Source of the DNA: Schmidtea polychroa
Lineage: Eukaryota
Length of the DNA stretch: 64,000 nucleotides
Assembly (NCBI GenBank): GCA_044892525.1
Contig: CM097888.1
Coordinates: 31,062,001-31,126,000, forward strand
Direction of reading: 5' to 3'
Shown: in pieces, positions 4,035-34,306 of the stretch
Layout: each line of letters begins with the position of its first letter
Position numbering within the stretch: the stretch's first letter is position 1
Translations under genes and position numbers: made by a program
The notes under the pieces: generated by a model
What the model was told of the DNA's origin: nothing
Seen by the model: the letters and a program-made list of their open reading frames with translations, nothing else
Databases searched by the model: none

Positions 4035-5411
4035 CATAGGTGGCCAACAAGTCGATCGCGAGGCCAATTTTGGTCGATCGTTGATCTCGTAATTCCGTTT
4101 ACTACCGTGACTTCGAAGGGATTTTAGAAGACAAAGCTTTGTGCTAATAGTTGAATGTATTCTGCGAACTTACCAAGTTCATGAATACCTAGAATTCTTA
4201 CAACAAGACACTGTTATATCCGCTCGCCCAGCACAATACATTTTAACTTATGTGTTACATTGTCACCGACACAACATGCGAAGGCAACAGTTACAACTCG
4301 AATCGTTGAAAAACACATTCAGTTAGCTTGAATATTTGATGGCCATAAGTAGCTTCATTTCTTTTGTATTAACTGTGTCATTATTAAGGAATATTATTAA
4401 TTCTTGGTGACCACGTATTTCTGTATAAAATGGATGTTATTTTCTTTGTTTTAAATTAAATTGCTTTTCTTACCTATTTATTTACTTGATAAGTGTGCAT
4501 TCTCTGCAACAGATCTCTAAACTGCGGTCATTGCACTGGGAAACAAATAAGGGATAGCATTACAAATATATTAGGAATATCAGCAATTTTACCTAAAGTA
4601 AGAGGTCATTAATGTAAACCGTAATAAATAAATTGTAATTTTAATACACTTCTTGTAAATTCGAATTTATCTAAATTAGATTTTGATATACTTGTATTGT
4701 TGTCCCCGATTGTAGTATGTAATATTGTTATTATTTTGTTCAATGTAATGGAGATAATTGCCGCAGTTCATGAATTTTTGAATTTTCCATGAAAATATTT
4801 AATTCAATATTTATTCTATAAATTGTCATTTCTTTGCATTCCAGTATGCCCATAATATGAGTAGTAAACCGAAAAAATCTAAAACTTATCACTTCAATGA
4901 AGAGTGGGAGCTCGATTATTTTTTTACAATGGTGAATGATAAATGCTGTTGTTTAATATGCCTTACCTCAGTAGCCATTGCTAAGAAGGGTAATTTGGAG
5001 AGACATTTCTTAGCTTTACATAACAAGTATCAAACTGATTATCCACCAAATTCAGAACTGAGAAAACATAAAGTTTAGGATCTTAAAACTCGATTAGCAA
5101 ATCAATAGTGTTTTTAAAAAGCCAAGGTTGATGTCACAAGCAGTAACTACTGCATCATTCAAAGTTAGCTATCTCTTAACAAAAAAATGCAAGCCATTAT
5201 CCGACGGTGAATTTGTAAAGGAATTTTTTTGGAAATGTCGGATTCACTTTTTAACGATTTTAGGAACAAGAGTGAAATTGTTGCTGAAAATCAAGATCTA
5301 CAATTGTCTCGAAACACAGTGGTGCGAAGAATTGAAATAATGAGTGGGAGTGTTAAAGAGAAGTTAATTAAGAATATTAATATATGTTCTTGTTTTTCCA
5401 TTCAATGTGAT
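4035..5411 (+). mobile_element. hAT DNA transposon (GTF2IRD2/EPM2AIP1/SPIN-type), 5' half, truncated by LTR insertion
   Basis: Terminal CATAGGTGGCCAAC. Broken transposase MSSKPKKSKTYHFNEEWELDYFF..CCCLIC..KKGNLERHF..KPLSDGEFVKE..LQLSRNTVVRRI..FSIQCD, cut at 5411 by TGTTGGG. Confidence 0.85.
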
Positions 5412-5660
5412 TGTTGGGTACCTGGGTGTACTTTTCATAACTGTCGCAACTAGGGATTGCTCTTACCATTGATTTAGCTTTTCCACAGCACCCAAGATGA
5501 TTCATTGACATATTCCCTCCGGTGTACTCATAATAACGAGTCATGTTGGTGATGTACACCGAGGTTGGAACCTGTGAGCAGGTGAGCTCCTGCCTTAGGA
5601 CTACTTTTCACAGTGTTCGCGGTTTGGGTTCTAGAATGCCATAGAAGGACTTACATCAAT
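5412..5660 (-). ncRNA. Conserved structured RNA at LTR 3' end (divergent copy 1)
   Basis: CCTTCT..GAACCC motif; stem GAAC-CTGTGA/TCACAG-GTTC; stem CCTC-GGTGTAC/GTACACC-GAGG with an ACCAAC bulge; junction closed by CTTGGGTG/CACCCAGG. Confidence 0.6.
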
Positions 5661-5947
5661 CAACAATTTGCCTCTGGTCCAAGTGAGGTCTTTGGATTGG
5701 TCTACATGTTTACGATGCGGCCGGAGAACAATTTATTAGTTATTCGACTATCAACGAGACACATTTCGCAATTTAAACATTTATTATATTCAATCCAGTT
5801 CTAGATACATTGGGAAGGAAAAGTACAAACATCCAACAGATTCACATTTCAGACACAGTATCACAATTCGTTCATCAAAAGATTCACAATAGTAATTTGT
5901 CAGACTAGAAGGGATTTGTGTTGAACCCTTCAGGTGGGTATTGGCGA

Positions 5948-6647
5948 TTACATATCCCCTTCTGCCAACATTGCGTCGATGTCATGTTCTAACACTGGGT
6001 CGAGAGATTGCCGAGAAACTGTTGTTGGCGCGACTTTGGTTGTCGAAGCTGGACCCTCAGGGGATACTACTTGTGCCTGAGTGACAGTGAACAAGGTCGC
6101 TTCTAGAGCCGCAATTTCCTCACGCCGTTTCTTAGTTTTTTCTGCGCGTGTCAATCGCTTTTTACTTTTCTGCTTGGGCGGATCAGTCTGGGTTACCCGC
6201 TGAGAAGTTGAGGGGTTTACAGGATTCACGATTGAAGGTACGGGTACCGGTATTCGTGTCTTTAGGACGTCCGTAATGACTGGTGACCCGACCGTTGGGC
6301 CATGAGAATCACAGCAAGTCGGGTGAGCCGGCTCTGGATGAATTAATTTCTTTTGTCCAAGATGGGATATTCGGCAATGCGCGCCTTCAATTAGGCTTCC
6401 GAATAGATGCGGTGGAGAGCCGCTGGCTCCGACTTTCCTCGAGCAAACTGTCCAGACAGTGTTCGAGTCTGAGAATCTTCATTTGGGCCTCTTTCACCCG
6501 CACTGGAGTAAACCAGGTACCTTCCAAGGTGTCAATTTTCCGCTTTAATGATCCTATGTACTCAGCCGATTTCTTCAGTAGCGCATTTTTTTCGGCGCAC
6601 GAGAAACACGGTCTCTGGCCGGTTGGAGGGAGATTCGGTTCTGACAT
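5948..6647 (-). pseudogene. LTR-encoded coiled-coil protein (ORF-B family), ~230 aa with one frameshift
   Basis: ORF 6647-6387 joins the open frame ending at 5948 if one A near 6400 is removed (..RLSTASIR|SLIEGAH..). Motif KIDTLEGTWFTPV is shared with 21091-21469 and 33538-33892. Confidence 0.6.
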
Positions 6648-8754
6648 TGTTCTTGAAAAATACTAAAAATATGCGAAATGGTTAAATTACCCCGATACAA
6701 TAATTAAGTTTCGCAAGGTCCCCCAAAAAATCTCTACTAAACCAATTCCCCTGGTCGGTTTATTTACCCCGCGAATTCCATACTATTAAATATTCGCCAA
6801 TTCTTCTGGATTTAAATGAGTAGGGACAGAGTCTCGATTGAGAAACAATTGAATAACCACACCTTTCTCCCGCATTATCCAAACCTAACTGTCGATTTGA
6901 AGTTAATTATTTAAATTTATTTTATCGACGGTGAATAATTGTGAACTTTACAAGGTTATCATTAATTTTCTTATTATTTCCTTTGCGGAAAAATCTTATT
7001 CAAATTTAAATGACGTCCAATTCAAATGCATAAAAGTTTCTATGCTTTACTATTCGACATTTGAGCAAGGAGATGTTAAAAAATAAAAATCAATTTAGTT
7101 AAAAATAATTAGGAAAATATCAGAAGATTTGTTATAAATTTATTTATTATAAATTCGTTTATGATAAATTTAATATAATTATAATATACACCTAATATAC
7201 AGATTTCGACTGGCTTGTTTACATTGCTTATTTAGATCAAATAAAAAAAAATATCTTCCGATGTGTCGCCTGAATTTGTGTAGAAATCCGGACTTATTTT
7301 TCTCCCGCTTATCGCCATTCGAAACGATTGGTTGCGGACGTTTCTGTCCGGGAATTTTCTCTAAACCGGAGTTATCGGTGGCTGATTTACCATAGGTTGT
7401 GTACTGAGTGTGAAGGTATAATGTGCAAATAATTCAACTTCGTGGTTATCCCTGTAATTAACTGTCGACTTCCCCGCAGAACATCCATCATTCACTCATT
7501 AAAGTACAGGTGAATTACGTAACCGGCGTAGTCGCAATTTATGCACACTGGCTGGATGAGTGGCGGAAAATTATGGGGATTCTTACTACGTGTGGGACGG
7601 GTGTGTTGCTGCTGTATTTCTGTTTATAGGTGTTTTAGATTTTTGGATTTCGCCGATGCCTCTTCACCAGCTGGGTTAATTAGCGAAAATTGTTTATGTG
7701 AAATGCCGAAATCTCGTTAATTCATCAGGTGTAGCTCTCGTTCTATGTTTGGCCGATTTTGATTCTTAGCGTTATCAGATGGGAGGCCCTGCCAAATATT
7801 GACAAGTCGATTGAAACTGGTAAGGTTTTTGTTTATCATATTATCTTGATATTACTACAGAGTTTACGATGGAAAGTATAGATAACCCGGCGGCAAGACT
7901 TCTCTACTAGTTGGCGGTTAAACCCGTTAAAGTACAACTCTATAGAAACCAGACAAGTAGAAGGTCAATCTCGATGGTTTAATCGCTTCTGTGAAAGGTA
8001 TTTCTTGACTATCGAATGCCTGAAGGGTATGAAATTCAATATCTCCTCGCGATGTCTCTCCTATTTCACGATGGCAATTTGCTTTTACCTACAAAAGATA
8101 CAGATGGGTCATTGCCATCACCGAGCCAGAGAACCTATCGTTTCCACATATTATGTCAGATTTTATCCACACCCAACTACCCACTACGCTATCACTATAA
8201 TCAATCATACAGCAAGACGATCTGAGCCCTATCGATGCGAGCATCAACAGTTCCAGACGTCCTCCCAGCTAATCAATCATCATCAATAAGTAAATCGAAG
8301 TAATAATAATAAAATTTATATTTATAATATTAATAAAACCTAGACTATTCCGTCACGGTTACTGTACTACCGCTACCTTATAATAGATATCCACTTGCTC
8401 TGCTGAAAATGCCGAAACCTCTATTACACTTCTCTAGTCACAAAATCCAACTATCCCGACTAGTTCTATTCCATCTTATCCGATCCTCTCCGGCTACATC
8501 TCGACTGGCTAAATATTTCTTCTGCTCCCTTCCTCCGGGTCATAATCCGGTTACTCAACCAAGTTCGTGAATACAAGTGTCATTCTCCCTCACGCTACCC
8601 TGCATACACATTCCATCGGCTCATCAGCACTTCATGAATCTCCGGATACTGCTATATAAATTTCTTCAAAATCTGTCTATACAACCATCCGTTCGTTGCT
8701 GTCATTAACAAACGCTATTGATAAGGTTTTTGTATAACATAAGGCGGTTTATAA

Positions 8755-9164
8755 TGTGGTTAAATTCAGCGCGCCGTCAAAAGACTCTCTCCGAATTATT
8801 CCCCGAAAATCCTTCTGTGAATTATTCCCCGTAAATTACTTCTTAAAATCCAAAAGAAACACAATTCAGCGACAATACGTTTATTAACAATTAAATATTT
8901 TAACAATTATATTTGAATCGATACATTATCAATTTCCAACATTAAACTTAAGAAAAAACCCGATCGTATGAGTCGCCGCGGTGGCAACCATTAAAACAAA
9001 CATCAGAATAATAATATTACAAATATTTTAACATTTTAATTCCAACTTTCTCATAATGCTCCCTTGCACTCTACAACACAAAATATTAAACCTTTCAACA
9101 TTCGAACTATAATCAGTTTTAAAACATTTAATTATAACAAACTTAAATGACCCTTTTACTCACA
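8755..9164 (-). repeat. 3' LTR (410 bp)
   Basis: Direct repeat of 10481-10890 with 2 substitutions. Confidence 0.95.
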
Positions 9165-9196
9165 TCCCCCCGAGTTTGTTAAGTAAGCACACACTC

Positions 9197-9925
9197 TTAT
9201 TCGTTGCATGCTCGTATATTTTTAACATGCATACATACCCCATCAACAGAAACATTCCATGCCGAATTTACATCTGTTACCACACCTTCTCTCCACTCAT
9301 CCATGCAAGTCGCATCACCACCCTTTACATGAACGACATCACCAACTCGAAACTTTCCACTCGTTTCATTGTCCCGATCTCTTTCAACATTTTCGTCATT
9401 CAACTCGTATGCATATATGGAAGCAAATGGCACGGAGCATTCATCTTGACCCTCGCGCGGCGACGCATTATACCAAAACAGCATTTCTTCCACAGTTCCC
9501 CGCGTTCGAGCCACCATCCTTTTTATTGTCCTGTGGTTACGTTCCACAATTCCATTTCCAGAAGATTCATACGCACATCTATACATATGCTTTACTTTCC
9601 ATTCATCACAAAATTTTCTCAATGCATCGCTTTTAAACGCTCCTCCATTATCACTAAGTAATTCTCTGCAAAACCCTCTTTCGAACATGGTCTTTCTTAT
9701 CGCATTCAACACGCTTCGTACACTTTCATCTTTCAACTCATGCCATATTGCATACCTCCCGGGTCCGCAGTCCACTACCGACAAATACTTCTTTCCCTCC
9801 AAATGCACAACATCCACTGCTATTCTGACCCACGTGCCACCCACGCTCAACTCACCTTTCGGCATTCTACACGCATGCGGATCAACGGTAGCACACTTAA
9901 AACAATTTCTCACGACCGCCTCCAC
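9197..9925 (-). CDS. Retroviral-type integrase core (rve); N-terminal His pair of the HHCC finger deleted
   Basis: CFKC, RIAVDVVHL, LLSDNGGAF, SSGNGIVERNHRTIK give the D-D-E triad. Confidence 0.9.
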   Translation of the reverse strand: MEAVVRNCFKCATVDPHACRMPKGELSVGGTWVRIAVDVVHLEGKKYLSVVDCGPGRYAIWHELKDESVRSVLNAIRKTMFERGFCRELLSDNGGAFKSDALRKFCDEWKVKHMYRCAYESSGNGIVERNHRTIKRMVARTRGTVEEMLFWYNASPREGQDECSVPFASIYAYELNDENVERDRDNETSGKFRVGDVVHVKGGDATCMDEWREGVVTDVNSAWNVSVDGVCMHVKNIRACNE

Positions 9926-10337
9926 GTCCTTTCGATTCTATTCCCGCGCTCTTCACTAATCTCTTCAAGTTTATGGCATACAAATCTACCTTATCACTCA
10001 CACATTTCAAGTTGACAAACATTTCATACGCTGTATATTTGTTTATGCCAAATGTTTTACGCAACGCCGATTCCACACCCCCTTTCACGTCTCGTTCTTC
10101 CTCAGACATATTCATATACACGCTGAAGGCCGAACCATCCAACAATAGCGGCATAATGCGTCTCGTGTCTTTAATGCCTTGCACATCGCACACCATTCTA
10201 ACTCGTTCCAACCATTCCTCAACATCCAAACTCCCATCATACTTCGTCACAACATTTAACACCCTTATAGACGACTTCACCGCGTCTTCATCCCGAATCC
10301 CCCCTTCATTCATTCCACTTTTTACTTTACTTGTCAT
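9897..10337 (-). CDS. Gypsy gag N-terminal fragment, running out of frame into the integrase at the deletion junction
   Basis: LDVEEWLERVRMVC..MPLLLDGSAFSVY..ALRKTF resembles retrotransposon gag; junction near 9930. Confidence 0.75.
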   Translation of the reverse strand: MTSKVKSGMNEGGIRDEDAVKSSIRVLNVVTKYDGSLDVEEWLERVRMVCDVQGIKDTRRIMPLLLDGSAFSVYMNMSEEERDVKGGVESALRKTFGINKYTAYEMFVNLKCVSDKVDLYAINLKRLVKSAGIESKGRGGGREKLF

Positions 10338-10468
10338 TTCAAAACAATTTATTTTAAAAATCGAATTTTTAAATTGTTTTTAATAATTAAATGTTCTCAA
10401 TACTTTTTACAAATCAAACTATTGAAAAGCTATATTATGTATCATTCAAAGTACAAAAAAAATATCTT

Positions 10469-10480
10469 GCCCGGATAGCT
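10469..10480 (-). promoter_or_regulatory. Primer-binding-site position complementary to nt 1-12 of tRNA-Lys(UUU)
   Basis: The + strand reads GCCCGGATAGCT directly abutting the 5' LTR, identical to the 5' end of animal tRNA-Lys(UUU). No canonical TGG-type PBS is present. Confidence 0.65.
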
Positions 10481-10890
10481 TGTGGTTAAATTCAGCGCGC
10501 CGTCAAAAGACTCTCTCCGAATTATTCCCCGAAAATCCTTCTGTGAATTATTCCCCGTAAATTACTTCTTAAAATCCAAAAGAAACACAATTCAGCGACA
10601 ATACGTTTATTAACAATTAAATATTTTAACAATTATATTTGAATCGATACATTATCAATTTCCAACATTAAACTTAAGAAAGAACCCGATCGTATGAGTC
10701 GCCGCGGTGGCAACCATTAAAACAAACATCAGAATAATAATATTACAAATATTTTAACATTTTAATTCCAACTTTCTCATAATGCTCCCTTGCACTCTAC
10801 AACACAAAATATTAAACCTTTCAACATTCGAACTATAATCAGTTTTAAAACATTTAATTATAACAAACTTAAATTACCCTTTTACTCACA
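10481..10890 (-). repeat. 5' LTR (410 bp)
   Basis: Direct repeat of 8755-9164. Confidence 0.95.
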
Positions 10891-11989
10891 TATAACAACT
10901 CATATATTCAAATAAACTTTTCATACAAATTGAACTAATCTGGATCATGTATTCCAATAAAGTCTTCATAATCATATCATTCCAAACAGTATCATTGAAA
11001 CAAAATCACCCTATTGGCATAATCAAATCATTTCTAGTTAATACAATCGACACCGTGAATTACTAAATCAATAAAAAATATGATCGAAATGAATTACCAT
11101 ATTGGTATAACTAAATTACTTTTAATTAAAATGATTGAAAGAATAAAGAACAAGCTTATACTCATGTTATAATTACAAATTTAAAATGAATTAAAAAGGT
11201 GCTTGTAGAATTCATACGTTAACATCTAAATCAACCAAATAAATCTTACATTGTTACTAGTTAAGAATTGAATTGGTCGTCTATATCGAGTTAATGGCTG
11301 TAAGTCGTCCCGTGGATAATAGTCCTGAATTATAATTTTAATACCTGAGAGAATAAGCCGCTCGGTTTTCTTATATACTGGATTCTGTCCAATCAGAATC
11401 CAGTGCGGTTGTATAATTTTATTTTTATTCATTTTTTCTCTTTTATTCTTTTCTTATGTTTTTCTTTATTATTTTTAGCGATTTTATTAGTAAGTAATTT
11501 TTCTATTCCTATTTTCCTTTCTTTGGTTGATTTTTGAGTTATTTTATCGCGTTTTCTCACTTATTTGCATTTCCTTAATTATTATTACTAATTTTGGGTT
11601 GGATATTATTATTTTAATTTTTCTTGCTATCTCTTTCTATTATTTTTAATATTTTTCTATTATTTTCCTTCTTAGGTAATTGTTTTGGATTTTTTATTAA
11701 ATTTTTCGCTATTATTTTTCTATTCTTCCTTTCTCCTTGGCTAATTCCCTCCCCTAATTCTTATTCCGTTATTTGTCTGGACCTTTATATTTATTGAAAA
11801 TCAGCCCAACAAATCACTCCGGGGCCCGTTAAAATTGCAATTTATAATTCTAGAGCAAAATTAAAAAAAAATAATACAAAATCACGTGTCGAGTTCACAC
11901 ACTACCATTCAAACATATGTCATACACACACAAAAGTTAAAAGATAAAAATTATATTGATAGTTAAAGGGAAAATATAAGACAAGCAGA

Positions 11990-13440
11990 CGTCACTTAAG
12001 GTGACCAGGTTTATGTACAGATAGTTCATTGTTAATTCGTGTCACATACTCAAATTGTTCAAAATGTTGTTAATGCAGTTGCCGGTTGGCTTTCGAAATC
12101 CTTTCGGGAGCTTTGGATTGGGTGAATTGACAACGTTGTTGAAGCAGTGGGTTGGATTGTGGCATGTACATTGTTGGAAGGTGGATTTTGTTGTGGTTGG
12201 TCAATTTGGGTTGGTTGTTGGAATCGTACAGTCCTCTTCGGTATGTTTCTTGGTTGCGGATTCTTCTTTGTTGGTTCTGCGAACGATAGCTGGTTTCTCT
12301 GCCATGTCTGGTATAGTTCATATGATCTCCAGATGATTAATGTACAGATGATGAGGGTTTCGCTGATTATAGTATAGAGCCAGACATGGCTCTCTTTCGT
12401 TTCCTTTTCTAGGGTGGTTTCTTTTTGTGATTGTTGAGTGGCTTGTTGTTGCAGGAGGGTTTCTAGTTGCTCGATTCCTTGGTTTTGCAGAATGAGTTGC
12501 GCTTGAATCTTTTGCCAGACGGATTTTTTCCAGCATTGTTTTCAAATGTGGTTGTAGGGCTTTCTTTCGTCTCTCAATTTAGTTGTTGGCTCTTGTTGGG
12601 AAATCTGATTTTCTGTAATCTTCTGGCTTTCTTGGGGTAGCTGCTTCATCAGAGTTTCATTTATTATTTCTACTATTATTACGAGGGTTGCTCCGGACCA
12701 CATACTACTATACATATATTTTATACACAAATATTTACATTGATTTCTCTATCTTTATTTATCGGAGGACTTTCTTTCTCGGATAACTTCATTATTTTGG
12801 TCTCCGCTTTTATTACCCTTTTTCTCAATTCGGGCAACATTTCTAATTGTCTGTCTTTTTCGTGTATTTGCTGTTTCAGAGTTTCTTTTAACATATTTAT
12901 CTCTTGTGTTGCTTTATCTAGGTTTTTGTGGTTCATTAATTGTAGGAAGTCGTTTTCTCTTTTCTCGTCTTACCCGTCTCTCTTTTCATCGTCTATTTCT
13001 TGATATTTATTATTCATCTTCCTCATTATTTCGCATTCCCTTTGTTTTTGGTGTAACTGAAGTTGAAAATCTTTCAGACTCTCTTGGTGTTTCCGTGCCT
13101 CGGTTTTCCAGTAATAGTTGATTACATCATCTGCCTTTATACTCGCTCTTTCCTGCCAAAATTCTTCCGTGATCTACTCCCAGTTTTTCCCTCGCTTTCT
13201 TTGTTCGTGAAGCCATTCGTTTTCCTCTTCTACTTCTTTCTTTACTTCCTCCAGTAAATTATATTCTTTTTTCAGCACTTTAATCATTCTTCGGTTATCT
13301 CTCCATCTTTCTATTAATCTTTCGTTCTCTTGTCTTGTAATTCTTCCTTGATAGTTTTCTTTCGCTCTACTTCTTCTATTTCAATTTCTCCTTCTAATTC
13401 GATTATTAATGTTATGGTGGATTTTCTATATGGTGGATAT
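11990..13440 (-). pseudogene. Decayed long coiled-coil plus transmembrane ORF (retroelement accessory or env-like)
   Basis: E/K/Q-rich frames interrupted by stops and frameshifts. 12730-12058 is one frame with a single TGA and contains the hydrophobic segment VWLYTIISETLIICTLIIW followed by a P/Q/T-rich tail. Confidence 0.5.
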
Positions 13441-13619
13441 ATATATGGTTAATAGTGCGCTATAGGGCGACTTATACATATACAATTATTTTCTGGAATA
13501 TAGTTTCCAACTTAAATGGCGGGTTACACTCCCTTTACTACTTTTATTGTACTATTAATTTTTTTGTTTGGGATACAGCTCCCGATTTTGTACTTTTTTG
13601 TCTTTTTATTAATTTTATT

Positions 13620-14403
13620 TTATACAAACGTTTCCTCCTGACCCCCGTATCCTTCGTCGCTTTCAACTAATGACTCCAAATGTATAGCGATTTGGTCGTG
13701 TGGTAGATAGTACCTTGGAAGTTGAGCCCTCAGCTCGTGAACTTCATCTCTAAGCGCCCTTGAGATGTTCAATTCCTCATTTAAGAGATACGTGATAGTA
13801 CTGGATAGTACTATGTTTCGTTGCTCCAGTGCTCCTTTATAGCCATTGTTATCCCGTTCCAGCTCCGCTACTTTGTTTACTAATTCTACTATCCTTCCTG
13901 ATTGTTGCAGGATCATTTCCTCCATGGCTATATTTTCTTGTTCTTTCAAGGTTATCTTCATTGCTAAGTGTATCTCGAACTCCATTGCCTTTGTTTGCCA
14001 CGTTTGACTACGTGCGGCGATTCTCCTGAGTTTTTTCAACTCTTCTTTTTGATTGAGGTTTTCCTCCCATTTCTCTTGCTCGTTATCGAATCCAAATTTT
14101 TGAGGCAGTTCCTTCATCTCCTTTTTCAGTTCTTTGTTTTGTCGCTTACATTTTCTGGCTTCTCTCAACAGATGGTTAGTTTTTCTCCCTTCTCTTTCTT
14201 TTTCAATTTCTCGTTTTTTATTCTAGTCTGTCAGTCTGGACTCTTTTACCAACTGCTTTAAATAGTGTCCGTGTGCTTCTTGGCGGGTATTCACTAATGC
14301 CCACCATTTTGCGGCTCTTTTGCAGGCCCCTGCCTCTGCCATCAAATTTTGAATTAACCACTGGGATTGATGGAATTCCCATTCCCTTGGACTTTTTGTT
14401 CAA
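13620..14403 (-). pseudogene. Coiled-coil ORF (~260 aa), one frameshift
   Basis: ORFs 14403-14218 and 14168-13620 join if one T at ~14220 is removed (..DRLE|KKREIEKERE..LREARK..). Heptad-rich. Confidence 0.55.
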
Positions 14404-15965: not shown

Positions 15966-18284
15966 CAAAAAAGAATTTTATAATATTATCTTCACATAAC
16001 TCAAACAATTCCATATGTAGTTCGCTAGGCGCCTTTGCGATATCAACTAGATGTGGTTCAAATGCTTATCTCATTGTGATACTATGTTCTTCAAATTCAG
16101 AAAACCGTTGAGTATATTCTTCAATTAATGAGTCCAAAACAGCAATATAATCTTGAAATGTTGCACTAGCAGATTTCTGCTCATTTAATACTTTTTCTAA
16201 TTGCGGATAATGCTCTTCCGATCGAGAGAAAATAGTTTTGAAAAATAATATCTTTTTTCGAAGACTGAATTTTTTGCCAAATATCATAAATATGTTTTGT
16301 TTTACCTTGCAAAGAAATATTTAAATCATTCTGCTTTACCATAATATCACACAAAAATGCAGTATTTCTGCAAAAATTTTAATCTAGTAATTCGCATTAT
16401 TGTTTGTTCCTCATAAAATCTTATAATTTGTTCTCGCAATGATAAAACTTTCACTAAAACGTCCTCTTGATAAACATCGAACTTTGCAATGATACGGCAA
16501 ATCTACACTGTAGGTATCATCGTCGGACATAAGAAGGTTTCGAAATTGGCGATGTCGTGTTGCATTTGCTCTGATGAAATTGACAATTACAATAATTTTT
16601 TCTAGAGTATTGTTTAAAGAAGTGGATTTAGCACAAAGATTTTGTTGGTGCAATATTCAATAAAATGAGATTAATAATTTTAAATTTGCATTGTCCTTTT
16701 TTAATAATGAAACGAAACCTTCTCTTTTCCATTTCATGTAAGGTTCACCATCAGTATATACACTCACCAGATTATTGTTGGGCTAGAACTGACTTCATAG
16801 ACCCAAGTTTCTAATTGTGACCGAAATGTGTAGGTACACTGCATGCAAAAAGCAAAAAGTATAGTTAAATATTAAAAACCACACCAAATAAACAATAGTA
16901 ATTAAAGGAAAAAACAACAAAAACCTAAAACACAGAAATTAAATAAAATTCATACAAAAGCAAGCAGTTATGCCAAATCTAACTCAAAAATAACCAAATA
17001 AACATAGAATTACAAAAAACAAACTCGAATAACTTAAAAGATGGTAAAAACAGCAAAAAGTTCCAGAAAAACCCAGAACATTCCATAAAAATGGCGACGA
17101 CCATCACAACGGCCATCTAGAACAACAAAAGTTAGAGAAAATAAATAAATTAGTATTAAAAATAAAAAATCTTAAAAAGAAATTCATGAAACAGCAGTTA
17201 AAATGAAAATTGTATTAAAAAATAAAATAGAATGTTCTGGAACCGTTCCAAATCCATCATGGACGTAAAATTAATGAAAAATAATTAGAAAATAAAAATT
17301 TAAAAATAAAAACAAAAATTATAGCACTAAAATTTCCATTAAAAATATCAAAATCACGAAATAGAAAATTCTGGAATAAAAAGAATTCGAGTTTGTTTTA
17401 ATGCATCAATACATACACGTGTACAAAATAGGTATATATACCGACGCATTTTGGTCACAAAAAAATCTTTTTGTATGCCAAAAATTTTCGTAACAAATTT
17501 GGACAACACCGAAAGTAAGGACTGTTGTTTGTATGTATTTTTCATTGTTATATTATTATTCTATTTTATTATATTGATTTGCATTGAATTAATTTTTTCT
17601 TTTTTTTCATTTATCCTACTATCACGAAATAAGAGTGACCAGCATTGTGAACAGGTTATAGTCACCATGCTGATCAGCCTTGTTTCCAACTAATAGTTCA
17701 CATGCACAAATTCGGGTCTACGACCCCACATGCATAAAAATTTAAACATTTTTTATTAACCGGAGGTCGCCACGAACAAATGGTTCTAACCAGGAGTAGG
17801 GCGGTAAATCCATACCGGTAGTTGGCATAGTCATAGGGACTATGCGGGCGAAATAAACTTCGGGAAAGTAATCGCGGGAAACATAACACAATAAGGCCTA
17901 TCGTACCGTATTCAGTTGAGTCTGGAAAGTAGGAAAATTTTAATTAATTCGACTTTTCAGTAAATTACATGCTTAAAATAAACACTCAACCATGCTATAG
18001 GAGACATAACATTAGGAAAATCTAAACGGGAAATATCCCAGACTCAATGTACTTCAAAGACACTCCGGTAGTCGGCTAATTGCACAAACCATTCGATTAT
18101 TTGGTGCACTTAATATTGAATATTATTAATAGACGTTGTCGATTGTATTTATAATTATATTGATCAGAAAATTAGTACTCAATGGCCCGAATCTAAGAAA
18201 AATTCAATTTTATAATCATATAGTTTACAATGAGCTATTGAACGTAATATCCGGATTATCGGGAGGATAGACATTAAATCTTAT

Positions 18285-18640
18285 CATTATCATTTAATAT
18301 TATTTAGATACTATAAAATTCTAAATCCATTTATTGTGTTATTGTCATTAATATTATTTAAATACCATAAAATTCTAAATCCATTTTATTGGATTATTAT
18401 CATTTAATATTAATTAGATACTATAAAATTCTAAATCCATTTTATTGGATTATTATCATCCAATTTAGATACTATAAGATTCTAAACCCATTTATTGTAC
18501 TATTGTCATTAATATTATTTAGACATCGTAAAATTCTAAATCCATTTTATAGTAGTATTATCATTTAATATTATTTCGATATCAAAAATTATAACCCCAA
18601 TTTACTGCATTATTTTCATTTAGTATTATGAGATTGCCAA
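18285..18640. repeat. ~55-bp AT-rich tandem array, about 6 copies, inside the LTR
   Basis: The unit core CTATAAAATTCTAAATCCAT recurs at 18311, 18365, 18421, 18472, 18527 and 18582. Confidence 0.9.
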
Positions 18641-19763
18641 CCCCTTTTTATGGTGTTGTTATCATTCAACATTGTTTGGATGTTGTCTCAAATTACCAAT
18701 CCGATTTAGCTTATTTATTAATATTAGAGTCAAAGGATGTTACAATTAAATCAAGTAAATTCTCTCTATATTGGCCTTAGCGAGACCCTTAACCTAAAAC
18801 CCCACCCTAGCCTACCTATTGAGTACATACCTCATCTAACTAATTTATTGATTTATTGAAATGCTACTATAAATAGAAAATTCGAAATTAACCTTATTGA
18901 TTTTCTTTCCCTCATGATAAGAATCAGCCAATGGGACCACTTCTATTAATAGCAACCACCCTACGAACCAAAAGGGACCTCGTCAAACTCATTCTGGCTG
19001 ACCAAATGGGCGATGCATACGCTCTTCTAAATGCGCCAATCACTGTCGACCATGTCATTCGGAACTCTGATTTTCGTGTGAAACCTATCACACCCACGCG
19101 AAGCTAACCCAAGTTACCCCAGTAGTCAACCCATACACGACAGGAAAGACAAAGGACCCTTCTCCTTCCTTTTGCTTCTACAGGATTAGCTGCCTAAGTT
19201 AAGATATAAAACCATAACCCAGAATAATAATTAGCCAGCGGTTTATGACACTTTACCATAAATTCATGAATTACTTTAACGTAGAGAAAAGTACTAATAA
19301 AATTACCCAATAATTGTTGCATATTGCGAATCATATGTTATATTGATAAAAGGATTAATGAAATTACCCAACACCAGTTCATAAAGTGGTAGGATGAACA
19401 TTAATTATCTGGTTAAATTTGCCAAAATGTGCTAACCAACAAGATCTCAATTCCTGAAATCAGACAAGTTAAAGTCAAACTCCCTCTTACCCGTTAAGTA
19501 TCCGTTGTAGAGCAAGCCACTTACAACCATCCTGGTCAAGGACTCGCAAAGGGCTGAATATAAATTCAGGCCAGTTGAAATATCCGTTTCCAGGATGAGT
19601 CTTAGTAGCACGATTTGATGATTGAAAAAAAAAAATTACCAATAGATAATAAGATTAAATTATAAAGATGAAAATTCACATCGGATTAAATGCGAATTAA
19701 TATTTAAAGTGACGTAATTTGATATAAATAAATCAAATAAATCTTTGAATGATTTAAACAACC

Positions 19764-19980
19764 AGTATCGGAGGTTTAATTGATAATATTTTAAATATTT
19801 ATTTTTACTGCGTCAACTATATCGGAAGTTTAATTTATAATATTTTAAATATTTATTTTTACTGCGTCAACTATATCGGAAGTTTAATTTATAATATTTT
19901 AAATATTTATTTTTACTGCGTCAACTATATCGGAAGTTTAATTTATACTACTTTAAATATTCATTTTTACTACACCAACC
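19764..19980. repeat. 54-bp tandem array, about 4 copies, inside the LTR
   Basis: TATATCGGAAG starts at 19818, 19872 and 19926, with a variant near 19765. Confidence 0.9.
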
Positions 19981-20221
19981 ATTTATTCATCAAACATAAA
20001 ACAATGGATCCCCAATTTAAATGTTCTGTATTTTCCTATCCGTTACTTGTAGGCCTCGACTTTCACAACTCCCAAGTCAACCTACCTTTAACTAAAGAAC
20101 CGAACACGGAAATTATTTGGCAACTCGAACCTGAATGAAATAGTGTATAAAACGTCTGGGGGTAACTGGATATAGAGGAACAAAGGAAAATTTCCCTAAT
20201 AATTCTTTTAATTTCGTAGAT

Positions 20222-20698
20222 ATGCATAAGCTCGGATCAGAAGACGGCCACGCGAATCCCTTGGCATCCGCGGTAAGACGCAACCTAACTCCAGAAGAGG
20301 CAGGTGAGGTTACCAGATTGGACCTACCAGTGGTCCCCGTAATCCCGAAGGTGGAGCCTTACCTTAATCGCGCGTCATTAGCTTTGATAGACGCCTTTGA
20401 CGAGGTGACGGTGGCGATAGACCGACTACGCCGGCTCGAGAAAGCAACTTTGGCTGGTGAATTAGAAGACTGCGACGGCTACGCTCGAGCCCAATGTCAT
20501 CCGAAACGAACTGCAGCTCTTCAACGTGGATTGAAATACCCAAGACGGTTTCAACGAGGACCGGGACGACCGAGGAAACGCGGACGCACGCAAACGTCCA
20601 CCCACTCGACCAAGGAGAGTGCGGAATCGGAGGCTAGCGGAAGCCATGTGACTAACATTGGCGCGGGGTCCAGACGAAAACCTCGGGATAGAAACTAA
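20222..20698 (+). CDS. LTR-encoded ORF-A, 158 aa, with AT-hook-like basic motif
   Basis: Intact ATG-to-stop ORF; TATAAAA near 20149; GPGRPRKRGR; homologous to 32813-33052. Confidence 0.6.
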   Translation: MHKLGSEDGHANPLASAVRRNLTPEEAGEVTRLDLPVVPVIPKVEPYLNRASLALIDAFDEVTVAIDRLRRLEKATLAGELEDCDGYARAQCHPKRTAALQRGLKYPRRFQRGPGRPRKRGRTQTSTHSTKESAESEASGSHVTNIGAGSRRKPRDRN

Positions 20699-21090
20699 TC
20701 ATTCTGTGCTGACCTTAGAGTCGGGTGTATTATGTGATGTTATGTACTGGGTTAAACATCTTTAATCCAGGGTCGAATATTATACATTATGTCTTGTTAG
20801 TTCATAATTATTTGATGTTTGTTTGCGTTTGATGACCGATGACCACCCGATTGTAAAGATTGTCTGATTTTTAGCGATATACATGACGTGGAGTACCACC
20901 AGTTGACCACAAACTTCCTGCAGCGTTGCCTTGACAGCCCTACCAGGTTGGGGAGGCCACATGGAACTCGTTTTTGAGTACGTTTGGCGGAGGGTTGCGA
21001 CGAGGTGATTACTTCGTTTAACATCTACACTTATAATAGCGCTCAACCCTCGATGCTGGTGTAAAGATTATTGACGTTATCTCGTTTTAG

Positions 21091-21469
21091 TGCAGAAACT
21101 CCTGGAAGAGATGCGAGCAGATAGAGAACGGGCACAACGACAGGCAGAAGAATACCGGACCAAGTCGACACGAGTCAAGGCCCACTGTCGGAACTTCGAG
21201 TGCACCTGGTTCCCCCAGCGGAAATGCAGAAGAAGATGAAGTTGATCACTCAACTACAACTTCAGAATGCACAAGACCAGATTGAGTTGCGGGCCCACCG
21301 CCTGAGAATGAGGGAGCTGGAAGTCAAGGTGCACCAACAGGACCTGGATCGAGAGGTCATTGCCACGATCCGGCCCTTGGATGAGTTGCTCCGTCGAACG
21401 AAGAAGTGCACCCCAACAGCAGTAATCCCAAGGAAGAAGGTTCGGCTGGGCAAAGCGGCGCGAGAATAA
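21091..21469 (+). pseudogene. LTR-encoded coiled-coil ORF-B exon, 1-nt frameshift in a C run
   Basis: After the acceptor TTTTAG: KLLEEMRADRERAQRQAEEY..CRNFECTWFP|PAEMQKKMKLITQLQLQNAQDQIELRAHRLRMRELEVKVHQQDLDRE. Confidence 0.65.
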
Positions 21470-21659
21470 GACAAGCCAGCCAGGCCCAATTAACTCTCCA
21501 TTCTACTGGATCAGAGGCTACCCCAAGAGAATCGACCAGGAAACCTTAAGTTGTCTATGTGGTCCGAATAAATCTTTACTGGTGTATCCGTGTCTGTACA
21601 TTTTGATTTTTTTTTGGTGTTGATTATTGCCACGGGGACGAAAAGAAACCGGACATAGA

Positions 21660-21867
21660 CCTTCTATCGGTAGTCCGTGAACCCCAGTGGGCACTAGACA
21701 ATTATAGTATGTTAAGCATGCTCACTTTTTGCTAGTGCCCAAACCCTTGATACAGTACCAACGTTGATCGCTCAACGGGTATCAAGTGGTCAGCTATAAA
21801 TTGTATTCTGGGTTACGCTGGAAACAGCCCGAGGAGGTAAAGATTTTTCAGTACCTGTAACCCACCA
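21660..21867 (+). ncRNA. Conserved structured RNA at LTR 3' end (U5), copy 2
   Basis: Stems GGGCACTAG/CTAGTGCCC, CTTGATAC/GTATCAAG with an ACCAA bulge, and GGGTTAC/GTAACCC enclosing GCTG-GAAA-CAGC and AGGTA/TACCT. Confidence 0.75.
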
Positions 21868-26369: not shown

Positions 26370-29300
26370 TGTTGTGAAGTTTAAAGTTATATACTTATAT
26401 ATTTATATAATTATTTTGAAGGCATCCAATCCCTGGAACCCCGGAATTTTTTTTTCCGAAATCCCGGGATTAAGATTGTCAGAATACCGGGATTCGGTAC
26501 CAATTTTTAATTCATTTTATTTGCATAATGCGTAGCCAATTCGGTTTCATCCCCTGAGTTATTTTTAAATTCTTCTTTTATCAGTTGCCGTATATTACAT
26601 AACATGCGCACTAGAAAGAGTATTAATGAACGCCAACGCAATACAACCTCGATAAATATGTTATTATGCATGCTCATTTTAATGAATAATTTCTATATTT
26701 ATTTTTGGCAAATGAGAATGAAACTTCCTAAATGAATGACATGAGAGTGAAAAATGGACATCACTACTCTTGAATACACCTAAATCCGAAATATAAAAGT
26801 TTCTATAATACATTTTGGTGTGTGCATCAGTGGGTTACTAACCATTTATGAAAGTGAAGTTTAATATTTATTCATTTATTCAATTTTTTGGAGAAAGGGC
26901 ATGTAAAAATTTAATCAATTTGACAGGAAGAATATTATTTCATTGCTTTTCCTTCTAATCAGCAAGGAACAGCCATGTCTGAAAAAAACATCCAAAATTT
27001 TGCAGAATGTAGCCAAAATTTGATTGAAAAAACTCGAGTGTGGGAATATATTTTACGTGCTAAATCAGGCGAGTCTGGCAAGTGTAAAAATGTCATAAAA
27101 TTTTGAAAATGACGGGCAGATTGACAAGCGGCCTTCATAAGCACATCGCAAGTCACTCCATCGTGATAAATCAGGTCGAAAGACCAGCCTCTGACACTTT
27201 AGGAGTACGACCAGCAAAATGCAATGACCCACAAGCCTATAGGAGCAAAAAAATTATCACTAATTATCTTGTTGTTCATTACGATAGCTCTCTGGAAGCA
27301 GTATTATCCTGTATGACAGCCTCCGATGGATTACCATTCAGTTTTTTTATAACATCGGTGGAGGAACGCAAATCACTGTCGGCTCGTGGATTTGACGTAC
27401 GAAAATCAACTACTTTTATTCGCACCATGGTCATGAAGTATGGCCGAATGATACATCAAAAATACAAGCTTGAAGTCTCGGAAGAAATTCACTATCAGCT
27501 TTGACGAATGGATTTCATTCAAGCACCGTCGATATTTGAATCTAAATGTGCACATTCAAAATAAAATTTGGGATTCAGGATAGGTTCGAGTGCGTGAATC
27601 TAAGCCCACAGAAAGCCGCATCAAACTTATTGAAGGAAAGCTGGAGTTTTTCGGATTAAATTAACACTAAGGTATTGTATGCACCGTGATGGATGGTGCC
27701 GCTCCAATGGTAAAAGTGGGAAAATTACTTTCTTGTGAGCAATAAATATGTTTTGTACATGACAAACACATGGCGGTTTGTGGATTTCCTTTACACAAAA
27801 CCTGTTTCTACACCAATTATAGAGGTTGATGATAACGATGACAGCGATTCAGACAACGAAGGTGAATATGACGGATTTCAAATTGTTTGCAAAGAAGATG
27901 AGCCAGAACTTACAGATTAGCTTTATGTATTCATCGGTAAAGTACTGTCTGTTGCCAAGCTATTTCGTCGATATCCGACAAAAACGACATTCTTCAGAAA
28001 TACATCAAAGCAGAATTCGGAAAAGAAGTTCAGTTGATGATTGATGTAAAGATACGATGGAACAGTCTTCTTTCTATGCTGGATTATTTCATTGGAGTTA
28101 AAAACTGCATTTTAAAATCGTTCATTGATCCTGGTTCAAGTATTTCATTTGAAGAAGAATTAAGCATGATTCAAAATTTGGTAACAACACTTGAACCAGT
28201 AAAGTTAGCTGTGGAAGCACTTTGTCGTCGTGACGCAGCACTGCTGTCAGCTGACAAAATGATTTGATTCATGATAAATAATTTTGGCAGCCGTTCAGCT
28301 GAAGGAAACACTTTCACGTCGATTGAATCAACGGTGAACCAAAAAGGCAACCAAAATTATGCAGAATTGGAGTTGGATCCTATCCTAAATTTTGAATGTC
28401 TAAACAAAGCGAAAAGTGTTTCTATGGTTACTGGTCTGACAAAGCCATCTGATCGCAATTAGTCATTTGAATCCGAATCGGACAGTGAGGCAGCTGAAGG
28501 AGAAGTCGAATCACAGTTGTCCATGCAGGAAAAGCTCCCCAGAGCATCAATAAGGAAATGAATTCCAAAATAATTTCCAAATCACGAACAGCGAAAGAGG
28601 ATATTTCAAGATGGAAGCTAAATGAATAAATAAACAAAAAAGACTTAATTTGAGTTCATCTGTTTGTACCTAATTTCATTTATTATTGTTTTAAACAGTG
28701 TTTTATTTATGAATTAAAAAATTTGTGTAAACATGTGGTTATTTAAATTTTGGGAAAAAATTTTGAAATGTTGCCAAAAGATTCAATACCGAAATCCCGG
28801 TTCTGGAAAAATGGTCCGGTACTAGATGCCTTAATTATGTTTATGTATTTATACTGATATTTATGTGTTACAAGAAATTTGTGATAACCCAGCAGTCTCC
28901 TTTAAAACTTACTTTGGGACTTCTGGGGTGATTGTATGTAGAGTATATAAAAATAAATTTTATAATAATTAGAACAAATATTTACTTTAACTTAAAATAC
29001 GAAAATAAACTAAATTATGTTATTAAACTTTTATTCAACAAAAAGATCAAAAAACTTTAATCACCTAGGGTTCCTTCTAAATTGTGCTTTGGTTATTTTT
29101 CAGGGTTAGGTTCATGAAACGTTGGAATGTTGCAGCTGCATTCCGCAAACCGAAAGGTATTCTGTTATATTCGAACAAACCAATTGGTGTTATGATAGCT
29201 GTCTTTTATGTCTTTCCTAATTGTAATTCGGTGATAGGTCTTTTGAAGGGCTATTTTTGGCAGGGGGTAGTTGTCTGCTTCTGTGATCTTATCTAGCATG

Positions 29301-32702: not shown

Positions 32703-34306
32703 AGGTGGGGTATCTGGAGTGCACATGAATCTGGAATGCACATAACTATCTACTGGCATCAAGGGGCGAAGATGGAGAAAGTCCGATGGTTCTCGTAAAA
32801 CAAGAGATGAGGAAGAGCCCAGCCCTGACTGCTCAAATCTAAGCCATCTCGAACATCGGGCTTGCTATCACCGGCCTCAGACGAATTGAGCAAGACATTC
32901 GCACGGGCGAATTAGAGAACCCCAATGGAGACGCCCTCGACTCACTGAGCATCGAGTGGTGGAAAACAGTTCCCGAACTGCAAGGACAGACCGGCGCGAA
33001 TCCGCCGAAGTCTAAAACAGGGCCCAGGAAACGAGGGTGGCCCCGAAAATGACTTAGAGGAATTGAGTTCACCGGAAGGCACCTCATAAACCGGCATTTG
33101 TTCTTCCTAGCCTTTCTTGGCTAAATGAATTTTTTTAGATGTTAATAAAGTATTGTTAGATTGTTTGTGTGTGTTGGTCGAATACAGATTATCGTCAGCA
33201 GAGTATGTTGAACGAACTTGAGAGGTTTGCAATGAGACCATGGGAAGAGTGAGTACCACTGTTGGGTGAGAATGGCTGGTGGAGCACCGTATGGGATGAA
33301 AGGACTAGATGCGCTAGAATTGGGAGTGAAGATGAGACGTTGTAACATACTAATCGATCAAACCGGATCTAAAGTGTGAGTAGAGTATCGGGGACCAATG
33401 GGTATATGACGCACGACCATGATTAGGAGGGATGCCAGCGGTAAGTGCTGAAAAGATAATATAACATCAGAATAGATGTCGAATTTAATACGATATTAGT
33501 ATAAAACATTCTGAGTTTCACTAATTTTGTTATTTAGTGTTAAAACTGCTGGAAAACTTACGGAGCGACTGAAAGGAGGCACAAACCTAGGTAGAAGACC
33601 TACGACAGAGAATCAAAAAATTCAAGGGGCAGTGCAAGGAGCTAGATGGGACTTGGTTTAGGCCCGTAGAGATACAGAAACGCATGTGGCTTATTCAACA
33701 GTTACAATTACTGAGCTTACAAGACCAAACAGAGACCCGGGCGCTCAAACTACAAGTTCGGAGTTGGAAACTCAACTTCACCATAAAAACCTCGACAGAG
33801 ATGCCGCAGATCGGATACGCCTAGTAGTGGTCAAACCCGCCGGCAAAATCCAGTCGACCCAAGAGGAAGCAACCGGGTCAAGATACCCGTGACAGGATTA
33901 AAAGAGCACACGTGACCACTAAGGCCAAACAAAAAAAGTGGAGAATAACTAAAAGATTAAATTTTTTCTTGTTGGTTGCATGAATAAATATTTTGTGGTT
34001 GGGGAACACTTTAGTTGAAAGATATGATGAATGTTGTGAAGTCTACTAACGGGAAATCAATCCAAAATTAGGAACTGTCTAGAAAATCTGACGGAAGCCT
34101 TTTATCGGCAGGCCGTGGACCCATGCGAGTACGGGGCATTTATAGTATGCAGGAGCATGCTCACTTCTTACTGGTACTCAAGCCCTTGATAAAATACCAA
34201 CGTTGAACACTCAATGGGTATCGAGCGGTCAAACACACCATTGTATTCTGGGTTACGCTGGAAACAGCAGGACAAGTTAAAATGTGTGCTTACCTGTAAC
34301 CCACCA
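32703..34306 (+). mobile_element. Giant-LTR family copy 3, 5'-truncated
   Basis: ORF-A homolog 32813-33052; ORF-B homolog 33538-33892 after a GTAAGT..TTTAG intron (33441-33537); AATAAA 33983; U5 structure; ends GTAACCCACCA. The 5' boundary is approximate. Confidence 0.75.
34098..34306 (+). ncRNA. Conserved structured RNA at LTR 3' end, copy 3
   Basis: GAGTAC/GTACTC; AGTATGC-AGGA-GCATGCT; CTTGATA/TATCGAG; GGGTTAC-GCTG-GAAA-CAGC..GTAACCC. Confidence 0.75.

Follow-up and report, generated by a model that had tools for sequence, protein, structure and literature searches.

A conserved, predicted spliced accessory gene within the long terminal repeats of Burro-type giant gypsy elements of Schmidtea polychroa

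Can the long terminal repeats (LTRs) of a giant gypsy element carry a gene, and what might such a gene do? Gypsy LTRs are normally regarded as non-coding, and solo LTRs are usually counted inert. The question is raised by three divergent frames in a stretch of 64,000 nucleotides from Schmidtea polychroa (the window), which share a TWFxP motif and which a sequence-only reading had assigned to an unrecognised helical protein encoded inside LTRs. All three motifs, reported at 6.5, 21.2 and 33.6 kb, are found at those positions: KIDTLEGTWFTPV on the minus strand at 6.5 kb (copy 1, read in the window sequence), CRNFECTWFP at 21.2 kb (copy 2) and CKELDGTWFRPVE at 33.65 kb (copy 3). For copy 2 the position stands and the proposed PPAE reading falls, as it spans a frameshift. 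The R..RL...L....H pattern said to follow each motif survives in part: R..RL and a His ten residues on are common to types A and B (the types of copies 1 and 2), while the middle Leu is not shared and copy 3 lacks the His. Frameshifts or stops break all three copies of the window.

The LTR setting of the copies is as had been supposed (Table 1). Copy 1 sits within the 3′ LTR of a type A element that has been truncated; a solo LTR holds copy 2, and copy 3 lies in a decayed LTR of which the 3′ end only could be placed. The start of the copy-1 LTR, at 11811, adjoins the same flank as in full elements, and its sharp 3′ end is shared. From its N-terminus, copy 1 comprises a CxxC, a helical hairpin with TWFxP, a Pro/Ser/Thr linker, a basic helix and an acidic tail.

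Table 1. Positions in the window of the LTRs, their genes and their predicted signals
Feature	Position	Strand	Remarks
Truncated type A Burro element, 3′ LTR	5412..11811	-	TG...CA ends; nested element inside
Copy 1, type A LTR gene	5948..6647	-	single gene of ~250 codons, ATG 6647 to stop 5948; frames 6647-6414, 6435-6340, 6346-5951
Type A element, remnant of 3′ internal region	11812..14387	-	71-73% identity to L182 and L186
Type B Burro solo LTR	16776..21867	+	4-bp target-site duplication
Predicted TATA box	17431..17440	+	LTR +656; sequence inference
Predicted coding start exon	17475..17514	+	13 codons + 1 nt, phase 1; GT donor 17515; from sequence
U1, window copy	20220..20698	+	acceptor 2 nt 5′ of ATG
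Copy 2, type B LTR gene (U2)	21091..21549	+	three frames; begins at phase-1 acceptor
AATAAA, candidate polyadenylation signal	21567..21572	+	not conserved in all lineages
Conserved multi-hairpin RNA structure, LTR 3′ end	21628..21867	+	GNRA-capped terminal stem
Decayed U1-like frame of copy 3	32843..33052	+	AT-hook-like end; by eye, weaker
Copy 3, type C LTR gene (U2)	33538..33908	+	from acceptor; stops and a frameshift
Type C LTR, structured 3′ end	34067..34306	+	

What are the elements to which these LTRs belong? In the host genome (781 Mb, A+T-rich, four large contigs), the LTRs in which the motif family resides are 4-6 kb long and belong to giant gypsy elements of the Burro type, hosts on which the sequence-only reading was silent, as it was on a second gene in type B/C LTRs. 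The repeat that holds copy 2 measures 5.1-5.7 kb and has TG...CA ends; 4-bp target duplications flank the window copy, five of five type B solo LTR relatives and both full type B elements. These ends and duplications identify the relatives of the copy-2 repeat as solo LTRs. The exact 20-nt LTR end occurs 153 times in the genome, with several occurrences paired ~31 kb apart (type B). Type A LTRs are 4.1 kb long, come in pairs 26 kb apart and are 99.6-99.9% identical within one element. Overall, the Burro-type elements here have an internal region of 22-25 kb and a total length of 30-37 kb. In two type B pairs the LTRs flank a polyprotein that carries CCHC knuckles, MATH, a fusion-glycoprotein domain in frame, protease, RT, RNase H, integrase and ankyrins; TRAF and BIR-RING frames follow, and type A LTRs enclose the polyprotein domains in the same order. 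Domains were assigned by Pfam in one type B and one type A element; the cargo so found is MATH, zf-TRAF, BIR and RING in type B, and RING and MATH in type A, with BIR absent from the six type A frames scanned.

This organisation matches the available description of Burro and GYPSM1, which likewise have a gag with CCHC knuckles, an env-like domain in frame before the protease, RT, RNase H, integrase, ankyrins, and MATH/TRAF and BIR-RING cargo (PMC6431247). Our assignment follows that description rather than a comparison with the named Burro-1 to -4 sequences. BCL2-like and dUTPase-like domains were not found by Pfam in the one type B and one type A element; those published, as far as the accessible text goes, are partly based on HHpred. 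Unlike the elements here, Burro has no LTR-internal gene in the part of the description consulted (PMC6431247).

Several other features of the full elements are of note. A RING-finger ORF of ~160 aa lies between the 5′ LTR and gag in both types (L082:7312-7791, L086:7316-7795, L180:7306-7800). A TGG primer site immediately 3′ of the LTR was considered and rejected, as it matched in only 7 places; full elements carry a TGGGGGCTC site 8-9 nt downstream of the LTR. In two of them (L082:6575-6610, L180:6830-6860) the primer-binding site starting 8-9 nt past the LTR presumably resembles the 3′ end of tRNA-Pro; the usual gap between LTR and primer-binding site is ~2 nt. Two arrays of the genome, at C2:37328942-37384168 and C1:72646551-72699609, hold three LTR genes each, with spacings of 27.4 kb and 26.4 kb, and are tandem elements with a common middle LTR.

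Is the frame a real gene? We consider this nearly certain. Searching the genome with protein queries turned up 5,833 and 5,143 candidates at first look, of which 150 were scored per search. We quote maximum-likelihood values of omega, since saturation removed the majority of distant pairs from the pairwise dN/dS (in the type A core, 47 of 210 pairs were usable). Omega is 0.066 in the type A core (21 rows, 104 codons), ~0.1 in the type A basic helix, 0.41 in the linker, 0.135 in the type B core (23 rows) and 0.155 in U1, the second LTR gene described below (15 rows), and omega = 1 is rejected in the four sets so tested (2dlnL 985, 59 for the linker, 404 and 291). The type A rows are 21 of 25 long frames, three shifted tails and one near-duplicate being excluded; the type B and U1 rows were thinned from 60 and 29, respectively. 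One caveat is that the rows were picked as open frames, which biases omega down. A check free of frame choice used 30 copies picked by an LTR-end DNA pattern only, in 26 of which the region is present. Over the first 90 codons, differences at codon positions 1/2/3 amount to 0.093/0.027/0.189; just upstream of the acceptor the three positions are flat (0.233/0.258/0.265). The U2 frame is open in 22 of these 26 copies and each of the other two frames in none, although the copies are related and such counts are not independent events.

These data bear directly on the alternative that there is no gene, and that the frame owes its survival in young repeats to chance or to RNA structure, or is a stray gag fragment. 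Every window copy is broken, dN/dS among near-identical type B copies is 0.66 for the entire frame and 1.24 for its C-terminal part, and splicing and the transcript are predictions, all of which would suit that view. Such dN/dS values are as expected for neutral decay after insertion. Opposed to it are omegas of 0.07-0.14 between lineages that are ~40-50% identical, codon periodicity that begins at the acceptor, relatives in another species, and internal ORFs that fail to match. We regard the no-gene view as highly improbable, and as already refuted by the omega and codon-periodicity results. The past purifying selection suspected from the sequence is thus borne out by the core omegas of 0.066 (type A) and 0.135 (type B), with omega = 1 rejected. 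The two findings named in advance as counting against it did not materialise: dN/dS in the cores is 0.07-0.14 rather than near 1, and neither a gag nor a host protein was hit, with no internal ORF matching below E 0.7 and no Pfam match at cut-off.

How are the members of the family related? Profiles of the copy-1 type and of the copy-2/3 type align with an hhalign probability of 93.9 (E 1.6e-7, 80 columns; the first GTG in some rows was taken as Met), and by this sequence comparison types A and B/C are homologous, above chance. At the DNA level, copy 1 scores close to shuffled sequence against copy 2 (75, shuffled maximum 76) and slightly higher than it against copy 3 (82, maximum 71). Copies 2 and 3 are clearly similar in DNA (157, shuffled maximum 75).

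Outside the family, matches are few. Internal frames of four elements gave none to either profile below E 0.7. Types A and B and U1 have no Pfam family at the curated cut-off; sequence searches of the PDB found nothing below E 0.05, an Atlas search no usable match, and Foldseek nothing at E 0.001 in PDB or BFVD. VIA-align returned generic helical hairpins only (best Z 9.3). The family thus stays unrecognised by Pfam, PDB, Atlas and fold searches, and the notion of an LTR-resident, unrecognised helical protein is upheld by location, selection and homology searches alike. A search of 5.8 billion sequences gave one match for type B (P0007) and none for type A. A library of 1.84 billion sequences yielded 15 proteins (P0008-P0022, E 1.8e-15 to 7.5e-4), 13 of which carry an unrelated host or transposase domain. 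Two that were compared with the genome match type A frames there, and over the core reach no more than ~30-50% identity to any sequence in it; by sequence the 15 look like mis-joined, chimeric gene models from another species. In these models the LTR exon is fused with at least 12 unrelated host genes; the fusions are probably prediction errors, and possibly real exonisation through the LTR acceptor.

The proteins are 150-250 aa long. Type A proteins have ~250 aa, their own ATG and an invariant CFSC (CxxC). By alignment and model, helices span residues 18-42 and 49-89, with the TWFxP turn between them, followed by a short helix and a basic helix at 182-210; conserved His/Cys residues, and then the variable linker, precede the basic helix. 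The model (pLDDT 63.5, pTM 0.30) is trustworthy for secondary structure only. In 18 of 21 type A proteins the acidic tail contains a hydrophobic-x-x-hydrophobic-hydrophobic motif, for which the model predicts a short helix. Type B/C proteins are shorter, with two helices and a turn as in type A and a shorter basic stretch, and they have neither CxxC nor acidic tail.

How would such a gene be expressed? What divergent LTRs have in common is mostly the initial 700-740 nt, portions of the coding region and the terminal 230 nt, and the first of these blocks ends with a TATA box (~+655), an ATG (~+700) and a GT donor (+720 to +745). We propose that transcription would start ~690 nt into the type B LTR, and that the phase-1 donor of the short ATG exon would join either of two phase-1 acceptors, producing U1 or U2. 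Of 16 chosen LTRs, 12 have an open start exon in phase 1, and its length varies between lineages by whole codons. Among 30 LTR starts picked regardless of gene, 12 are without the TATA block, and 7 of the other 18 have an open phase-1 exon. The control for this test of the start exon is not clean, as later GT sites are often phase 1 too (8 of 13 and 3 of 8), in part because of a second conserved candidate exon. The latter, a phase-1 ATG exon with a GT donor near LTR +1030, is seen in one type B lineage (L275, L280, L288). In four copies (L274, L275, L280, L281) the U2 core is open despite a broken start-exon frame.

On the acceptor side, the AG|TG noticed in copies 2 and 3 is indeed there, and type B conservation starts at it in 49 of 50 open copies. 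Since conservation runs from the acceptor, synonymous changes occur between it and the first Met (type B), and in some lineages the TWFxP motif is preceded by no Met at all, type B/C needs a spliced start. The U1 acceptor AG lies 2 nt before the ATG in 23 of 30 copies, and the U1 and U2 acceptors are both phase 1. Type A would use its own ATG behind an acceptor; a YAG lies within 16 nt of the ATG in 17 of 25 cases, and in 7 others one was seen by eye at 18 nt. In four sequencing runs, available as contigs and not recorded as RNA, none of the 15 joints listed (47 more were found) is of GT..AG type at a predicted site. Two contigs of run X1 cross the U2 acceptor unspliced. One run falls mostly on the first 650 nt of the LTR and has A-run loose ends, but that region is A-rich and contig depth cannot rank parts of the LTR, so that no conclusion is drawn from this run. 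A donor 31 nt before the LTR end was rejected, not being conserved.

Taken as sequence, then, the LTR probably forms a spliced transcription unit by itself, whose genes would lie past the start site and not in U3. If the predicted start site is right, they lie in R or U5. This bears on the analogy first drawn for these frames. The mouse mammary tumor virus (MMTV) Sag and lentiviral Nef genes lie wholly or partly in the LTR, are spliced, are situated in U3 and encode membrane-associated proteins. The analogy is apt in that the gene is LTR-resident and, by prediction, expressed through splicing, but U3 placement is open to doubt, given that within the same LTR the gene is preceded, at a distance of 3-4 kb, by the predicted TATA box, start exon and donor. 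Moreover, in contrast to those membrane-associated proteins, neither a Gly2 nor a hydrophobic segment is present in the type A and type B/C alignments.

At the far end of the LTR, an AATAAA was said to follow the gene, and one does lie downstream of each window copy (5785, 21567, 33983); it is missing from the last 420 nt in 4 of 13 LTR ends examined (L230, L232, L234, L180). The last 240 nt fold into hairpins in which 9 of 55 pairs show changes on both sides (2 of 500 shuffles), the structure being derived from the same 12 related rows that were used for this pair test. It has no Rfam match. Tandem 54-nt repeats occupy 19712-19981 of the window, in the predicted intron of the copy-2 LTR.

Upstream of U2, the type B/C LTR carries a second selected gene, U1. 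In the relatives of the window copy it encodes a Trp-rich helix (WIWYxIHxW), a second helix and a C-terminal AT-hook. RKRGRPRK is found in 10 of 11 U1 copies from LTRs picked by their 5′ end, and the defining Gly-Arg-Pro core flanked by basic residues is present, although the Pfam AT_hook score (14.5 bits) is under the cut-off of 17.4. The window U1 lacks 22 codons and has an altered hook. The U1-like frame of copy 3 gave no tblastn match at E 0.01, and U1 was not found in type A loci. Splicing of the U1 end to U2 was considered and rejected: the GT that follows the AT-hook in some lineages is phase 2, a misfit. One element carries, within the end of U1, a second copy of part of the LTR 3′ end (L089:6458-6574), probably owing to a template switch.

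What might the proteins do? Our leading interpretation, held tentatively and at somewhat less than an even chance, is that Burro-type LTRs contain a conserved accessory gene, predicted to be spliced, whose product is likely a nuclear trans-activator of its own element. We infer this role from anatomy and sequence, and by analogy with Tas of foamy viruses. Judging from the anatomy, the protein would oligomerise through its helical hairpin, and its basic helix would serve for import and for nucleic-acid binding; in type A, co-activators would be recruited by the acidic D-I-D-x-M-L tail. Type B is tail-less, and there the A+T-rich first part of the LTR would be bound by U1, acting together with U2. 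Solo LTRs would be capable of making these proteins unaided. The acidic-hydrophobic tail of most type A proteins speaks for an activator, as does the acidic, aromatic-rich stretch with which the basic segment ends in three of the 15 relatives from another species (P0009, P0010, P0017); the absence of the tail from type B/C, along with that of CxxC, speaks against one, as does a Rev-like N-RRRR-E-RRR run in the relatives from another species.

Tas/Bel1 is the nearest functional parallel. It has 209-308 aa, a DNA-binding domain and an acidic activation domain, and it forms dimers (PMC3798896, consulted in part). The LTR gene resembles it in size and in having a basic region and, in type A, an acidic segment of putative activation type, in a promoter (predicted here) separate from gag-pol expression, and in that Bet is a second accessory gene with a common spliced start, comparable to the predicted U1/U2 arrangement (same source, same part). 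On the other hand, there is no sequence or fold match between Tas/Bel1 and the LTR gene. Tas belongs to a retrovirus and, in the text consulted, has an internal promoter in env and lies between env and the 3′ LTR (PMC3798896), whereas the present gene lies wholly inside both LTRs of a gypsy element, with predicted promoter, introns and genes all in the LTR.

It is also possible, though rather doubtful, that the protein is an adaptor like Rev, Rec or CERV, in which the hairpin oligomerises and the basic helix binds element RNA so that unspliced genomic RNA is exported. This exporter ranks close behind the trans-activator. With a strong donor near the predicted 5′ end, and intron-containing LTRs that must be copied, an export route would be needed; covarying RNA structure lies directly behind the gene; and an Arg-rich run, whose N-RRRR-E-RRR form resembles the RNA-binding motif of Rev, is present in 8 or 9 of the 15 proteins of the other species. 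One of the 15 matches Pfam REV at 19.1 bits, under the cut-off of 22. There is also a gypsy precedent, CERV of C. elegans Cer1, which according to the part of the study consulted is made from a spliced mRNA and has a helix-hairpin-helix, a KRKK signal and a Cys motif (PMC10309623). As a gypsy regulatory protein with a helical hairpin, a basic signal and a Cys motif it resembles the LTR gene product; it differs in its 517 aa, its overlap with gag and its M and G domains (same partial source). Other observations weigh against an exporter. The structured end may be an ordinary leader beside the primer-binding site, the basic helices of type B are not Arg runs, and no Pfam REV match appears in 21 type A members at E 0.1. 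Proteins of the Rev/Rec/Rex type are generally known by a conserved export signal. A scan of type A from residue 121 to the end with generally known leucine-rich patterns found no conserved signal of this kind: any pattern occurs in 10 of 21 proteins against 47% of shuffles, and classes 1a/1b in 2 of 21 against 25%.

A third reading, which we hold to be unlikely, is a host-directed accessory factor that counters silencing or binds a host coiled-coil complex, akin to the IAP/TRAF/ankyrin cargo. TRAF/MATH, BIR-RING and ankyrin cargo is indeed present, here and in the accessible description of Burro (PMC6431247), the invariant TWFxP turn between the helices could be a protein-binding site, and Burro elements are silenced by planarian PIWI, according to the portion consulted of PMC8532177. 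However, the LTR gene has no similarity to any host family, which the other cargo does have, and the basic helix, acidic tail and adjoining AT-hook gene point to nucleic-acid regulation.

Proteins of the bZIP family have an invariant Asn-x7-Arg before the zipper, which is absent from the basic helices as read off the sequences. By the tests run, the LTR gene belongs to none of the Tas, Rev, Sag/Nef and bZIP families. Among plant gypsy elements, Retand (TRP28) and Ogre carry extra ORFs of suspected regulatory role that are lineage-wide, as here, but in the texts consulted these lie in the internal region and are often antisense (PMC11963269, PMC6431247), in contrast to the sense-oriented LTR genes described above.

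The Burro element is already known, as are accessory genes of retroelements (PMC11963269, consulted in part). We found no account of Burro LTR genes in the main texts searched (the original genome paper, figures and Repbase lay outside the search), and an LTR gene may have been annotated earlier; PMC13524379 does not mention Burro, and PMC13238120 does so only in passing. What emerges is that a known giant family keeps one or two selected, predicted-spliced LTR genes across lineages that are 40-50% identical. A trans-activator or exporter would explain how transcription or RNA export is controlled in a 30-37 kb element. At least 2,708 type B/C LTR starts exactly match one 17-nt pattern, so solo LTRs may encode nuclear proteins. 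A broader proposition, conceivable but in our view improbable as a whole, is that an invertebrate gypsy lineage independently evolved the regulation of a complex retrovirus and packed it into the LTR: promoter, exon, acceptors, AT-hook protein, activator or exporter, and RNA target. If true, solo LTRs in their thousands would each supply the host genome with trans-acting regulators on their own.

Finally, other mobile sequences are evident nearby. Nested in the copy-1 LTR is a 2-kb element (8755-10780) with identical direct repeats of 300 nt, an integrase core frame and a short gag-like frame, and no RT among the ORFs listed; it is probably a young non-autonomous LTR element. By eye, a piggyBac-like transposase split by a stop, and decayed hAT-like fragments, can be made out at 61804-63003, 4850-5400, 27088-28267 and 50027-52018 of the window, and elsewhere in the genome Polinton/Maverick-like frames adjoin one solo LTR (L028).
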